Assembly: GCA_043803805.1 (NCBI GenBank)
Contig: JAZDJP010000056.1
Span: 11,680-75,679 of the forward strand
Reading direction: 5' to 3'
DNA length: 64,000 nt
From: Planctomycetota bacterium
Lineage (GTDB): Bacteria; Planctomycetota; JAZDJP01
Shown: one piece after another, positions 48,131 through 53,425 of the stretch
How positions within the stretch are numbered: position 1 is the stretch's first letter
Layout: every line of letters begins with the position of its first letter
Notes under the pieces: generated by a model
What the model was told of the DNA's origin: nothing
Database searches by the model: none
What the model saw: only the letters and a program-made list of their open reading frames with translations
Position numbers and translations under genes: made by a program

Positions 48131-50791
48131 TCAGGTTTCGGGAGCGACGTACTTTTCCCCGCCCATTTTCTTCCAGCAACGATACAACAGAAACAGGCAG
48201 TATAGGTTGGCGAGGCCGAACAGCCCCTTCCACAAATAGACGTAGCGGTAGTTGTCCGTCAGCAGGGTGTTGACCGTCAGCCAGTCCACGAAAAGCGCCC
48301 CCGGCAATCCGATCACGATCCGCATGGTCTGGCGGACCAGCGCCGCCGCGGAACAAAACTGCCCGTATTTCGCCCGGGGGAATATGGCGATGAGGAAGGG
48401 GATGCCCACGGCGGTCTCCAGACCGGTGAACGGCATGCGAAGCGCATCGAGCCACAACAAGGAAAAGTACCCCTGTATGGCGAAGAAACAAAGGAAGAAC
48501 ATCGGCGTGAGAAAGATGTAGTTGAACAAGTGGACGCGGACCGGGTGGAAGCGGTCCACCATGGCCCCCATGGGGTATGACAGGAGGATGCCGATAAGCG
48601 TGAAGAAGCTGCCGATGCGGCCTGCCTTGAAGAAGCTGATTCCCTCGTCAATGTTCCATACGTGAAGTTTGCCTTTGTCGCTCGCGTTGATCAGGATCGG
48701 GCCTTCCGATTCGAAGGCCATGCCGGTCACCGCGGTTGTATAACCCGACAATGTCTTGTGCGATTGGTCGGTCGCGGTGAGAAACTTGTTGGAACCGAAT
48801 CCGGCGGGGTCCCACAAACGGACGCTGCCGTCGAGACTCGCGCTCAGAATCATCCGGATGTCATGTTTGTAACGGACGTTGGAAATGGCTTTTTTGTGGC
48901 CGACCAGGTTCCATACCAGCCGACCGTCGGCGGCATCCCAGACGCGCACCTTCGAGTTGATGTAATCGTTCCTGCCGTCGCGTCCGCCCGAGATCACCCA
49001 CCGGTCCTCCCCGACGATCCGGCTGGGAATCCGGTAGGCCGGCAGGTACAGTGATTCCCGGGTGAATATGTCCTTGAAGTAGTCCGGAATGAACCGGACG
49101 AGATGGATCAGGAATCCGGGGCGTTCCTTTTTGGGAAGGACGATTCTTTCCACGGCGGGGGAAAATGCCACGGTGTACACGGGGCCCATCGGATCCTTTG
49201 CCGGATCGGGTGTTTTATCAATCACCCGGAGGGATGTCCCCTCCGCGACGTTCCAGATGATGATCTTGCAGTCCATGCCTCCGGAAACGAGCCGAGAGCC
49301 GTCGGAGGAAAATCCGACGGAGTTCACCTGGCCCGTATGTCCGGTGAGCGTGTTCAGGCACTTTTCGGAAGTGATATCCCAGATCCGGACGGTTCCGTCC
49401 GCTCCCGCGGAGGCGAGTCGGTTTCCATCCGGCGAGAACTCGAGCGCCACGACGGGGCCGACGTGTCCGGGAAGCGTCTTTGCGCCCCGACTTTCGGAAA
49501 TGACATGGGTTGTGATGGTTCCCGTGGACGTTCCGCTGGCGGCGAGTTTTCCATCGGGGCTCATGGCCACGCATCGGATGGCATCTTCTGATGTGGACAA
49601 GTCGCGCACATGTTCAAGTGTGTTCTTCTCCGTTTTCCGCCATGCCTTGAGGGTGCCGTCGGGCCCTCCGGAAACCGCCATTTTCCCGTCTGATCCACAC
49701 GACACGCGGGTGCCGAAATGATTCTTAAGAAAGGCGGGAATGCCATCGGCATCCTTCCCGGGGGCGTGCCCCGGCGGCGGTTTCGCCGTCTTTCCCGTGC
49801 CGGCGGATTCCTCCCCATGGGCGACAATGCCGGACTGGTGTTTTCCCAGATGAAGGGTGAAGACGCTGGACATCTTCGGGCCGTTGACGATGACCCCCAT
49901 CGCCGCGGAAAGGTACATCAAAATATAGATGGGATGGGTGAAGCATTCCCGGAAGTAGATTTTGGTTTGAGACCATTTGCTCGTCTTTTTGGTGACGTCC
50001 GTGACGGGGGGGTATTCCCCTTCCTTGACCCGCCAGCACATGAGGCCGAATCCGACGAAATACAGGACGGCCACGCCGATGTGGAACCATTTGAAATGCG
50101 TCAGGTAGTATTCGCTTAAAAACACCCCGAGGAACCAACCCTTGATGCCTCCGATGATGCGGCACCACGCGAAGAACCGCCCGGTTAATTTGGGGGGGAC
50201 GACGTCCGCGAACAAGTAATAATAAACGGTGCCGACGAACTCGTTGAATACGGTGAATCCGATGGTCAGGACCCCGATCGCGATCATGGCCACGAGAAAG
50301 GCGTGCCTGGGGTCCACCAGAGTTTTGACATAGGCGATCACTTCGTCGGTAAAGCCCAGTCCGATCGCGAAGGCGCAGAGGAGCGGCATGGTGAACAACA
50401 TATAGGGGATGCGGCGTCCCAATCGGCTGCGACAGCGGTCGGATTTGAAACTGATGATCGGTCCCAGGACGATGCCGATGGTGTTGGGAACGAGGACGAA
50501 CAGAAAATACACCATCGTGTTGCTAAGCCGGTAGTTGTCCTGGAGATAGGTGGTGATGACGTCCGCGCCGCCGAAGCTCTCGAAAAGGCTGAAACACACA
50601 TCGCCCCAGATGAGCCAGCTGAACAGGACGAAAAGCCCGGCCTTGGTGTACTGGAGCGTTCCGCACCGGTACCGGTCATCCGCCTCCACCGGCGGATTGG
50701 GAGGCGCCGGGGGAGGAGCGCCGGGGGACTTCCCTTGCGGGGAAGAATCCGGGATCGGTTCGCCGCCGTCGGGTGGTTTTGTCTCGGCCAT
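48131..50791 (-). CDS. GPH/MFS_2-type transporter with an inserted WD40 beta-propeller domain (paralog B)
   Basis: The 886-aa product has a Pro-rich N-tail. About 7 TM helices include the GPH-family motif SDRCRSRLGRRIPYML. About 360 aa of WD40 repeats follow (LTGHTGQVNSVGFSSDGSRLVSGGMDCKIIIWNV; DGSVRLWD; KGKLHVWNI). About 5 C-terminal TM helices end ...KKMGGEKYVAPET. Confidence 0.8.
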   Translation of the reverse strand: MAETKPPDGGEPIPDSSPQGKSPGAPPPAPPNPPVEADDRYRCGTLQYTKAGLFVLFSWLIWGDVCFSLFESFGGADVITTYLQDNYRLSNTMVYFLFVLVPNTIGIVLGPIISFKSDRCRSRLGRRIPYMLFTMPLLCAFAIGLGFTDEVIAYVKTLVDPRHAFLVAMIAIGVLTIGFTVFNEFVGTVYYYLFADVVPPKLTGRFFAWCRIIGGIKGWFLGVFLSEYYLTHFKWFHIGVAVLYFVGFGLMCWRVKEGEYPPVTDVTKKTSKWSQTKIYFRECFTHPIYILMYLSAAMGVIVNGPKMSSVFTLHLGKHQSGIVAHGEESAGTGKTAKPPPGHAPGKDADGIPAFLKNHFGTRVSCGSDGKMAVSGGPDGTLKAWRKTEKNTLEHVRDLSTSEDAIRCVAMSPDGKLAASGTSTGTITTHVISESRGAKTLPGHVGPVVALEFSPDGNRLASAGADGTVRIWDITSEKCLNTLTGHTGQVNSVGFSSDGSRLVSGGMDCKIIIWNVAEGTSLRVIDKTPDPAKDPMGPVYTVAFSPAVERIVLPKKERPGFLIHLVRFIPDYFKDIFTRESLYLPAYRIPSRIVGEDRWVISGGRDGRNDYINSKVRVWDAADGRLVWNLVGHKKAISNVRYKHDIRMILSASLDGSVRLWDPAGFGSNKFLTATDQSHKTLSGYTTAVTGMAFESEGPILINASDKGKLHVWNIDEGISFFKAGRIGSFFTLIGILLSYPMGAMVDRFHPVRVHLFNYIFLTPMFFLCFFAIQGYFSLLWLDALRMPFTGLETAVGIPFLIAIFPRAKYGQFCSAAALVRQTMRIVIGLPGALFVDWLTVNTLLTDNYRYVYLWKGLFGLANLYCLFLLYRCWKKMGGEKYVAPET

Positions 50792-53425: not shown

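Follow-up and report, generated by a model that had tools for sequence, protein, structure and literature searches.

The window, by which we mean the whole stretch of 64,000 nucleotides analysed here, contains two adjacent genes, A and B, whose products combine the membrane core of a predicted MFS transporter with a WD40 beta-propeller. The first-pass annotation had described them as tandem paralogs of 886 and 876 aa, and both open reading frames are indeed present. The genes and their parts are as follows.

48131..50791, minus strand: gene A, predicted 886-aa MFS transporter with an inserted WD40 propeller
50024..50662, minus strand: A, MFS N-domain, TM1-TM6, residues 44-256 (hydropathy, DSSP, alignments to SLC45A4 and SUC1, conservation)
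50396..50443, minus strand: A, signature SDRCRSRLGRRIPYML in the cytoplasmic TM2-TM3 loop, residues 117-132
49847..49933, minus strand: A, TM7, residues 287-315 (aligned to TM7 of unfused relatives)
48635..49846, minus strand: A, seven-bladed WD40 propeller in the TM7-TM8 loop, residues 316-719
49046..49126, minus strand: A, hydrophobic/aromatic helix and 'NESLY' motif within blade 5, residues 556-582
48167..48634, minus strand: A, remainder of the MFS C-domain, TM8-TM12, residues 720-875
50795..53425, minus strand: gene B, 876-aa tandem paralog with the architecture of A
52472..53296, minus strand: B, TM1-TM7, residues 44-318
53030..53077, minus strand: B, signature SDRCRSRFGRRIPYML, residues 117-132
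51299..52471, minus strand: B, seven-bladed WD40 propeller, residues 319-709 (Pfam, AlphaFold)
50831..51298, minus strand: B, TM8-TM12, residues 710-865

The stop codon of B and the start of A are separated by 3 nt, and the two proteins share 45% identity along their entire length. In NCBI the products are MFH1022990.1 (A, under the name 'MFS transporter') and MFH1022991.1 (B). The AlphaFold models have a pLDDT of 87.8 and a pTM of 0.85 for A, and 89.9 and 0.87 for B.

Domain matches were judged by Pfam cut-offs of 27 bits for WD40, 33.4 for MFS_1 and 27 for MFS_2, and MFS profiles were scored on the joined membrane halves with the WD40 block excised. The combination of WD40 and MFS domains predicted earlier was recovered in both proteins: WD40 (PF00400) reached 147.6 bits in A, with six repeats called, and 139.9 bits in B, with five, and MFS_1 reached 44.0 and 37.0 bits, respectively. 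PF07690 is also among the precomputed matches of full-length A and B. The MFS_2/GPH match expected for both was obtained for B (32.7 bits) but not for the excised core of A (23.1 bits, below the cut-off); PF13347 does occur in the precomputed matches of full-length A, B, and most relatives. The TIGR01301 profile (GPH_sucrose; plant SUC/SUT, SLC45) gave local matches only, in the TM2-TM4 region, which at 19.5 and 28.8 bits stay far below the cut-off of 511. By these profiles A and B are related to the GPH_sucrose subfamily but are not members of it, and their assignment to a GPH/SUC-like branch of MFS transporters is supported.

Hydropathy and AlphaFold secondary structure give the order of six TM helices, a cytoplasmic loop, TM7, the propeller, and five more TM helices. 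The predicted total of 12 helices, arranged 6+6 as in MFS, bears out the initial estimate of about 12. An amphipathic helix was found in the central cytoplasmic loop, between TM1-6 and TM7-12 (AlphaFold DSSP, hydropathy), and TM7 of A is kinked and runs straight into the first propeller strand. The GPH signature noticed at first reading lies in the TM2-TM3 loop of both proteins and reads as the MFS basic motif (D-R-x-x-R-R type) in the form SDRCRSR[LF]GRRIPY. Its residues S117, D118, R119, R121, G125, R126, R127, and P129 are invariant in fused proteins and unfused relatives (for D118, R119, R121, G125, R126, and R127 in 51 fused and 11 unfused sequences).

The GPH, SUC/SUT, and SLC45 symporters (AtSUC1, 8bb6; SLC45A4, 9giu) share the 12-TM MFS fold with A and B, and the signature SDRxRSxxGRR aligns residue by residue with 'SDRCRSKFGRR' of SUC1 and 'SDRCTLSWGRR' of SLC45A4. 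A possible third likeness is an acidic residue in TM4. In A, a conserved 'FNEF' motif of this helix contains E184, a candidate proton-coupling residue, which in the HMMER alignment falls within a few residues of the SUC1 proton site Asp152, with a gap there that leaves the exact equivalence ambiguous; in some unfused relatives the E184 position is taken by D, S, or M. Location in sugar-utilisation loci is counted as a further likeness. However, the similarity of A and B to the solved structures is weak (E about 1e-7). We know of no GPH/SUC/SLC45 protein with a folded domain in the TM7-TM8 loop, and the extra domain of SLC45A4 is cytoplasmic.

The central region of A and B had been read as some 360 residues of WD40 repeats. 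Their WD40 nature stands, and the insert, at about 400 (A) and 390 (B) residues, is slightly longer. It has the closed fold of a canonical seven-bladed WD40 propeller, and all Pfam families among the best 25 matches for each protein are WD40-type propellers. The repeat unit quoted as an example, LTGHTGQVNSVGFSSDGSRLVSGGMDCKIIIWNV, was located at residues 482-515 of A (window positions 49247-49348). The first strand of the A propeller (residues 318-323) completes its last blade, and the linkers to TM7 and TM8 are only 2-6 residues long. A disordered linker at residues 327-358 is specific to A, and an additional disordered loop at residues 685-692 is specific to B. The helix within blade 5 spans residues 560-575 in A, with a pLDDT of about 90, and has its counterpart at 539-555 in B; F576, N578, E579, and S580 of this element are conserved in at least 90% of the family. 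Judging from the model and from its hydrophobic moment, the helix probably makes a further contact, either with the membrane or with the transporter.

Unfused relatives of 450-510 aa have 33-44% identity with the WD40-excised query over more than 90% of its length. They align through the junction, where their own loop has about 10 residues, which points to a clean insertion into this loop and confirms the location of the propeller between TM7 and TM8.

The same architecture was found in about 60 independent homologous clusters from NCBI, JGI, ENA, and Logan assemblies of many samples. In a tree of the MFS core, the 57 WD40-bearing proteins that we analyzed form a single clade, and no unfused protein falls within it. 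As far as these sequences tell, the WD40 insertion is thus shown to have had a single origin and to have been retained afterwards. The clade includes only Planctomycetota, Verrucomicrobiota, and Lentisphaerota-type MAGs and makes up about 8-9 clusters among 1.84 billion representatives. Mean column identity is 0.47-0.69 in the propeller blades and 0.59 in TM8-12, that is, the propeller is conserved to about the same degree as the C-domain of the transporter. The residues invariant across the family are kept in the fused proteins. Larger variants of 1088 and 1380 aa contain about two and about three propellers' worth of repeats in the same loop. Database labels for the family are only generic, "MFS transporter" or "WD40 repeat protein". 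No characterised family or paper on the MFS-WD40 architecture was found in the literature searched (the MFS-fusion survey of Willson et al. 2019 lay outside it). The first-pass view that no characterised transporter family is built in this way is consistent with these results; the family is rare and not a commonly annotated one.

On which side of the membrane does the propeller lie? The mean number of K+R in 51 family members is 22.3 in predicted cytoplasmic loops versus 3.4 in short periplasmic loops, so that the positive-inside rule places the propeller in the periplasm and supports the extracytoplasmic TM7-TM8 loop assumed at the outset. MFS homology and the periplasmic-type modules of sister proteins were also taken into account. 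For example, one subfamily member has a signal peptide, a CBM9 domain, and one TM helix ahead of the MFS part, and others have three TM helices, 3-5 Calx-beta domains, and one TM helix before it. Three further members (L063, L075, L076) have about 490 aa of repeats inserted into the loop between TM3 and TM4, a stretch to which Pfam and PDB sequence searches gave no class and which by eye resembles Calx-beta. All these modules occupy predicted periplasmic positions, and those of CBM9 and Calx-beta agree with an outward-facing topology. At L028, the gene of an unfused member overlaps that of a WD40 protein with a single-TM anchor, which gives further support. We therefore regard the periplasmic side as likely. 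The CBM9 and Calx-beta modules occur independently of WD40 in the same MFS subfamily, which comprises 781 representatives.

The genes around A and B are the following.

46416..48104, plus strand: GH123-family glycosidase without signal peptide, convergent with A (PF13320, E=9.5e-82)
53504..55348, minus strand: transketolase gene, 78 nt upstream of B (Pfam)
55490..58279, plus strand: divergent pair of an Ldh_2-family dehydrogenase and a second GH123-family glycosidase (Pfam), the latter at 56696-58279 and without signal peptide
59910..62231, minus strand: GH2-family glycosidase with the signal peptide MKLFPVHEAALALVLAACPVFASEE

The transketolase gene, B, and A probably form a tkt-B-A operon with transketolase as its first gene. 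A sigma-70-like site at 55418-55390, a consensus match only, agrees at 11 of 12 positions. Both GH123 glycosidases are likely cytoplasmic and the GH2 glycosidase likely periplasmic or exported, as predicted from the absence or presence of a signal peptide. Loci of relatives contain GH123, GH42-like, GH4, GH5, and GH94-like enzymes, sulfatases, and GlcNAc-2-epimerase-like proteins, with regulators of the GntR+Peripla_BP type. The fused genes are usually located in glycan-utilisation loci with GH123, GH2, or GH42-like enzymes, sulfatases, and regulators of the GntR/LacI type; two loci (L086, L005) have no carbohydrate context. A set consisting of an M28/AAC(3)-like protein of about 900 aa, an unknown 755-aa protein, and GH42-like, GH4, and GH94-like enzymes is shared by L001, L003, L007, L009, and L011 only and is missing from the window.

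Transporters with added domains are known from several other systems. The ABC importers OpuA and GlnPQ have covalently tethered substrate-binding domains, but these have the periplasmic binding protein fold and belong to a different transporter class. Mammalian PepT1 and PepT2 resemble A and B in having an added extracytoplasmic domain, and such domains bind a partner protein or capture substrate; however, theirs is Ig-like and lies between TM9 and TM10, in another loop and with another fold. In SV2A/B/C, a beta-rich folded luminal domain, LD4, lies between TM7 and TM8 and is continuous with TM7 (PMC11026379). Here the insertion site is shared with A and B (TM7-TM8, non-cytoplasmic side), and LD4 is a protein-binding surface. 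Yet SV2 is eukaryotic, belongs to another MFS branch, and has a pentapeptide beta-helix instead of a WD40 propeller, and its transport function is itself debated; no SV2 chain was among the PDB sequence matches of A and B that would point to a relationship with SV2/SLC22B.

The periplasmic NanM propeller is fused to the sialic acid transporters SiaF (SSS) and ST4/NanZ (MFS), in fusions enriched in Bacteroidetes and Planctomycetes/Verrucomicrobia, with the proposed logic that the propeller acts upstream of uptake and supplies the transporter (PMC8461474). The NanM part is a six-bladed (Kelch-type) mutarotase enzyme, N-terminal and behind a signal peptide, whereas the propeller of A and B is internal, seven-bladed, and of canonical WD40 type, with neither signal peptide nor known catalytic activity. 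By sequence, then, A and B are not NanM-transporter fusions of the SiaF/ST4 type. LacS, of the GPH family, is a sugar transporter extended by a C-terminal IIA-like domain (PMC10710835). That domain is cytoplasmic, regulatory, and HPr-phosphorylated, in contrast to the internal, predicted periplasmic domain of A and B. Since the SV2 site and the NanM fusions of the same phyla provide analogous designs, A and B represent a variant rather than a new principle.

Building on the established architecture, insertion site, single origin, conservation, and glycan-locus context, we propose that A and B are inner-membrane importers of oligosaccharides or glycosides, probably proton-coupled, which come from a small PVC-centred MFS subfamily related to the GPH/SUC/SLC45 sugar symporters. 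A whole seven-bladed WD40 propeller would have been inserted into the short periplasmic TM7-TM8 loop in the ancestor of one clade. With its last blade completed by its first strand, the propeller has its start and end side by side, and it would therefore sit directly on the periplasmic face of the C-domain, beside the substrate entrance; the blade-5 helix probably adds another contact. Since every residue conserved throughout the family is retained in the transporter core, this core most likely still transports; that the cargo of A and B is sugar seems reasonably probable. The propeller would most likely serve as a periplasmic capture or docking platform, a role that we assign tentatively. Its ligand may be the glycan substrate or else an exported protein, for instance a glycosidase whose products would then be passed straight to the transporter, and cytoplasmic enzymes (the GH123 glycosidases) would complete the degradation. 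We give this explanation as a whole an even chance. Its sharpest form, a tethered periplasmic receptor that feeds the MFS cavity by lectin-like glycan binding or by receipt from a docked exported glycosidase, is rather doubtful. The predicted top-face positions of the propeller vary between members of the family, which counts against one conserved ligand. The main explanation is also weakened by the lack of a universally conserved partner gene next to the fused genes, by the loci with no carbohydrate context, by the mostly cytoplasmic occurrence of canonical bacterial WD40 domains, by the low MFS_2 score of the excised core of A, and by the rarity of a split arrangement: among about 60 unfused loci, in only one (L028) does an unfused member overlap, by 4 nt, a gene for a WD40 protein with a single-TM anchor.

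No class of secondary carriers is larger than the MFS, whose members, to our knowledge, are usually regarded as functioning with neither binding proteins nor extracytoplasmic accessory domains, particularly those of bacteria. Here a conserved bacterial clade of single origin carries an entire WD40 propeller, probably on the outward face, at the TM7-TM8 site used in eukaryotic SV2. The propeller is likely to be an example of a canonical WD40 domain that acts outside the cytoplasm. The WD40, CBM9, and Calx-beta sister proteins make a natural series for asking how added periplasmic domains affect substrate capture, affinity, and coupling to periplasmic enzymes, and may show how a simple transporter gains a built-in docking or capture domain. 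The family bears on how oligosaccharides cross the inner membrane in Planctomycetota, Verrucomicrobiota, and Lentisphaerota, phyla with a major part in the breakdown of complex and sulfated glycans. Annotation as 'MFS transporter' or 'WD40 repeat protein' conceals the architecture. If the tethered receptor were real, A and B would be the first MFS importers to be aided by a binding domain. Along with the CBM9, Calx-beta, and multi-propeller sisters they would then indicate a PVC-specific strategy of modular periplasmic capture domains on secondary transporters, replacing the separate binding proteins of ABC and TRAP systems.

WD40 domains are platforms for protein-protein interaction, and the propeller could instead tether the transporter to some component of the outer membrane or cell wall, or gather transporters into clusters, as part of a trans-envelope uptake route of PVC bacteria with enlarged periplasms. 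The extra repeats of the 1088-aa and 1380-aa variants would lengthen the reach into the periplasm, and the restriction to PVC phyla and the CARDB protein and large fn3/dockerin proteins near some loci point the same way. However, comparison of the neighbourhoods of family loci found no universally conserved partner gene beside the fused genes, including any for the outer membrane or wall, and the single-propeller form, with its very short linkers, stays close to the membrane. An envelope tether or organiser is therefore unlikely.

The short linkers have another possible consequence. As TM7 forms part of the wall of the MFS cavity, the propeller could lie over its entrance, and the pTM values of 0.85-0.87 suggest a fixed orientation; GntR/AraC-type regulators are also common neighbours. 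The propeller might then gate or autoinhibit the carrier, or a non-transporting 'transceptor' might relay an envelope signal through the MFS core. Against such a lid or sensor, all invariant transporter residues, including the cytoplasmic signature and the acidic residue in TM4, are kept as for an active carrier, Pfam gives no cytoplasmic signalling output domain, and the CBM9 of sister members is a substrate-binding and not a regulatory module. Of the roles suggested at first reading (receptor-coupled porter, enzyme scaffold, or sensor), all of them still hypothetical, the pure sensor is thus less well supported than an active importer, and we consider the lid or sensor quite unlikely.

A cytoplasmic propeller would require a non-canonical topology and could serve as a hub for regulatory interactions, comparable to SLC45A4 with its large cytoplasmic loop. 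Bacterial canonical GH/WD-type WD40 domains are known mostly from cytoplasmic proteins, and the closest sequence matches of the propeller are WD40s of STAND NTPases and kinases. Its 4-5 cysteines are unpaired and poorly conserved; unpaired cysteines are more typical of cytoplasmic domains and count against the periplasmic model. However, the insert follows TM7 and is outside the central TM6-TM7 loop, hydropathy finds no concealed hydrophobic segments beside it, and AlphaFold shows TM7 as an ordinary membrane-spanning MFS helix. Cytoplasmic placement would also flip TM8-12 contrary to their charge pattern, and both the family-wide K+R bias and the extracytoplasmic modules at equivalent outward positions in sister proteins speak against it, which makes it improbable.

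Finally, misassembly, a gene-calling error, or a chance fusion of an MFS gene with a WD40 gene was rejected as next to impossible, in spite of the metagenome-assembled source and of frameshifts in some related loci (L013, L016, L004), because the WD40 part lies within the MFS reading frame, after TM7 and before TM8, and not at an end, the architecture recurs in the independent clusters from four sources and twice in tandem within the window, the propeller is conserved on a par with the C-domain, and the open reading frames are uninterrupted in 15 loci.

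The tandem genes A and B, each coding for an MFS transporter with a WD40 propeller in its TM7-TM8 loop, were found exactly where the first-pass annotation had placed them:

48131-50791, minus strand: A, ORF of 886 aa
50795-53425, minus strand: B, ORF of 876 aa

The start codon of A lies 3 nt beyond the stop codon of B, and the two proteins share 45% identity along their whole length (48% in a further comparison with family members). The source MAG is recorded by NCBI as Planctomycetota, and both proteins are annotated there just as 'MFS transporter'. The expected signature SDRCRSR[LF]GRRIPYML occupies residues 117-132 in both, and the WD40 unit LTGHTG...IIIWNV lies at residues 482-515 of A.

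The proposed WD40 domain was recovered by Pfam PF00400 with 147.6 bits for A and 139.9 bits for B (cut-off 27), and dozens more WD40-type propeller families matched both proteins. Since such matches crowd the hit list, the central block was excised and the membrane halves were joined for a Pfam search, in which the MFS assignment also held: MFS_1 gave 44.0 bits for A and 37.0 for B (cut-off 33.4), and MFS_2 (cut-off 27) gave 32.7 bits for B and 23.1, below the cut-off, for A. The NCBIfam profile GPH_sucrose matched weakly and locally (19.5 and 28.8 bits, cut-off 511). Among proteins of solved structure, SLC45A4 (E about 2e-7) and SUC1, a sucrose transporter of plants (E about 5e-7), come closest in sequence, and both can be aligned with A and B position by position along the TM2-TM3 signature. 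These matches relate the membrane part, an MFS transporter, to the GPH/SUC/SLC45 branch and place it outside the sucrose subfamily.

The query without WD40 finds many plain MFS proteins of 450-510 aa (33-44% identity over >90% of the query), and several such unfused relatives carry the JGI label 'maltose/maltooligosaccharide transporter'. In a joint alignment they run unbroken over the junction, in agreement with the proposed insertion: their TM7-TM8 loop has ~10 residues, whereas fused proteins have a block of 390-400 aa at exactly the same point. AlphaFold models built from family alignments (A: pLDDT 87.8, pTM 0.85; B: pLDDT 89.9, pTM 0.87) both give a propeller of seven groups of four beta-strands, in the order TM1-6, cytoplasmic loop with a short helix, kinked TM7, propeller, TM8-12. 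The last blade is closed by the strand directly following TM7, which brings the two ends of the propeller side by side, and only a few residues link the propeller to TM7 and to TM8. An additional conserved element in blade 5 consists of a hydrophobic helix rich in aromatic residues (A 560-575, B 539-555) and, behind it, a conserved 'NESLY' motif; we suspect this element of touching the membrane or the transporter.

How often did this architecture arise? Full-length fused homologs of 820-940 aa, 40-49% identical to A, form ~60 clusters at 90% identity. This recurrence excludes misassembly. Among species-representative genomes, only MAGs of Planctomycetota (Phycisphaerae among them), Verrucomicrobiota and Victivallis/Lentisphaerota-type organisms carry fused genes. 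The whole MFS subfamily is small (781 of 1.84 billion representatives at E<=1e-3), and its WD40-bearing clade shrinks to about 8-9 representatives at 50% identity. When the MFS cores were placed on a neighbour-joining tree (138 sequences, 446 columns), the 57 WD40-bearing proteins all grouped in a single clade that contains no unfused member, and proteins with a different, repeat-type insert are placed outside it. This topology indicates one WD40 insertion, kept thereafter, and independent gains of other modules. Mean column identity is 0.71 in TM1-6, 0.59 in TM8-12 and 0.47-0.69 in the propeller blades, and residues invariant over fused and unfused relatives are all kept in the fused proteins; by these measures purifying selection seems to act on both parts.

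Tandem fused pairs were detected in the window and at loci L004 and L016. B is up to 56% identical to proteins from other genomes vs 48% to A, so that, of the two copies from an old duplication, A has diverged further. Frameshifts break fused genes at L004:13009-15654, L016:8320-13983 (both tandem copies) and L013:10001-12576; these could be long-read MAG sequencing errors or true pseudogenes.

Other subfamily members and variants, several of them from an exhaustive search, are:

P0250: signal peptide, CBM9 (39 bits, cut-off 23.4), one TM, then MFS
P0224, P0254, P0281: three TMs, 3-5 Calx-beta domains (E 1e-42 to 1e-72), one TM, then MFS
L063:9992-13021, L075:10004-12922, L076:402-3302, plus strand: Phycisphaerae MFS proteins without WD40, 966-1009 aa
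P0003 (1380 aa), P0008 = L014:9986-13252 (1088 aa), P0006 (1123 aa), P0209 (1145 aa): long fused variants
L028, 10016-11476, plus strand: unfused MFS member
L028, 11473-13413, plus strand: WD40 protein of 646 aa with K/R-rich N-terminus, one TM, ~270-aa domain and C-terminal WD40

The CBM9 and Calx-beta modules are predicted to be periplasmic by the signal peptide or extra TM helices. The insert of the Phycisphaerae proteins (~490 aa) consists of 4-5 tandem repeats of ~100 aa (...TADVTI.V.PD.QVDLG.GPGK.ISLTF...NWDSPQTV.V.AIDD..PEG.H...) in the TM3-TM4 loop, also outward-facing by prediction; the repeats look Calx-beta/Ig-like by eye and had no significant match in Pfam and PDB sequence searches. 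The subfamily thus appears to be a hotspot for gaining periplasmic modules. Many further members have odd lengths, 650-1390 aa. In the long fused variants (1088-1382 aa) the TM7-TM8 loop again holds the WD40 repeats, here ~600-900 aa of them, enough for about two to three propellers. At L028 the two genes overlap by 4 nt; the 646-aa product is likely a periplasm-facing, membrane-anchored WD40 protein, and the pair, the one such case among ~60 unfused loci, may correspond to the fusion in 'split' form.

The neighbourhood of A and B contains these genes:

78 nt upstream of B, same strand: transketolase gene, preceded by a strong sigma-70-like match
divergent from the transketolase gene: Ldh_2-family dehydrogenase and GH123-family glycosidase
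converging on A: second GH123 gene
near A and B: GH2 glycosidase with a clear signal peptide

Inspection of the N-termini showed no export signal in either GH123. With a GH2 that is probably exported, this layout fits a route in which a glycan would be trimmed in the periplasm, imported and then hydrolysed in the cytoplasm. Relatives adjoin GH123, GH42-like, GH4, GH5 and GH94-like enzymes, sulfatases, GlcNAc-2-epimerase-like proteins and a sugar kinase, as well as GntR/LacI- or AraC-type regulators. Such glycan-type context is present at about half of roughly 20 loci with usable flanks and absent at a few, and no partner gene common to all fused loci was found. A ~900-aa Peptidase_M28 plus aminoglycoside-3-N-acetyltransferase-like (Antibiotic_NAT/DUF4910) protein recurs beside fused genes (L001:16064-18781, L003:259-2940, L009 about 6535-9210, L011 about 7263-9998), together with a 755-aa uncharacterised protein and a GH42-like protein; all three are absent from unfused loci. 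Two fused genes from one sample each lie in one of two near-identical cassettes (L083:3764-12408, L084:4846-13445), which run GntR/Peripla_BP regulator, GlcNAc-2-epimerase-like protein, sulfatase(s), MFS-WD40 gene, a content suggesting uptake of sulfated amino-sugar glycans.

The best-supported reading is that A and B are inner-membrane oligosaccharide importers, probably proton-coupled, whose periplasmic propeller would act as a capture or docking platform. Import and the task of the propeller are inferred here; the architecture, its insertion site, its single origin, its conservation and its genomic context are shown by the data above. Glutamate E184, conserved in TM4, aligns close to the position of the SUC1 proton site Asp152, in a gapped part of the alignment. 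The propeller might instead be a gating or sensing lid, or else an envelope tether or organiser. Capture or docking is favoured because WD40 domains generally serve as binding platforms and because the sister protein P0250 bears a carbohydrate-binding CBM9. A further argument, and the nearest parallel for the logic of the design, are the sugar transporters of the same phyla that carry fused NanM propellers (PMC8461474). For the insertion site the closest analog is SV2A, with a luminal beta-helix domain between TM7 and TM8 (PMC11026379), and for a GPH-type fusion it is LacS-IIA, whose extra domain, however, is cytoplasmic (PMC10710835).

A third rival, a cytoplasmic propeller under non-canonical topology, bears on the membrane side. 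The standard topology of MFS proteins has the loop between TM7 and TM8 on the outer side. To our knowledge, bacterial GH/WD-type WD40 domains are mostly known from cytoplasmic proteins, which counts against a periplasmic side, as do 4-5 unpaired, poorly conserved cysteines in the A and B propellers. In favour of it, K+R totals averaged over 51 family members are 22.3 in predicted cytoplasmic loops vs 3.4 in short predicted periplasmic loops, and hydropathy of A and B revealed no hidden hydrophobic segments flanking the insert. Under the same topology the CBM9, Calx-beta and repeat-insert modules of sister proteins, all of extracytoplasmic type, take predicted periplasmic positions, which is independent support. 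Together these data strongly favour the extracytoplasmic propeller of the first-pass annotation, and we regard a periplasmic location as probable.

Targeted literature searches found no characterised family with this architecture, as had been supposed, and two reviews, one on bacterial glycoside transporters (2026) and one on transporter regulation (2023), make no mention of WD40 or a propeller on an MFS transporter. The combination is genuine, rare and uncharacterised, yet made of familiar parts with conceptual precedents.

Two ORFs flanking the GH2 gene, 58297-59913 and 62201-63676 (both minus strand), had no Pfam match; the 538-aa one starts MSGNGFFHRRWFLAAALAVLAAG, resembling a twin-arginine export signal. 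Other genes of the window are:

110-5329, plus strand: ORF of 1739 aa, no Pfam match
8730-12821, plus strand: 1363-aa protein with bacterial Ig-like domains (Big_7, Big_13)
18564-20882, plus strand: 7TM receptor with intracellular HD hydrolase domain
21645-24137, minus strand: alpha-L-rhamnosidase (GH78-type)
40470-41636, minus strand: separate ordinary MFS_1 transporter
43382-46373, minus strand: hisB, hisC, hisD

The 1739-aa and 1363-aa products are probably large surface proteins.
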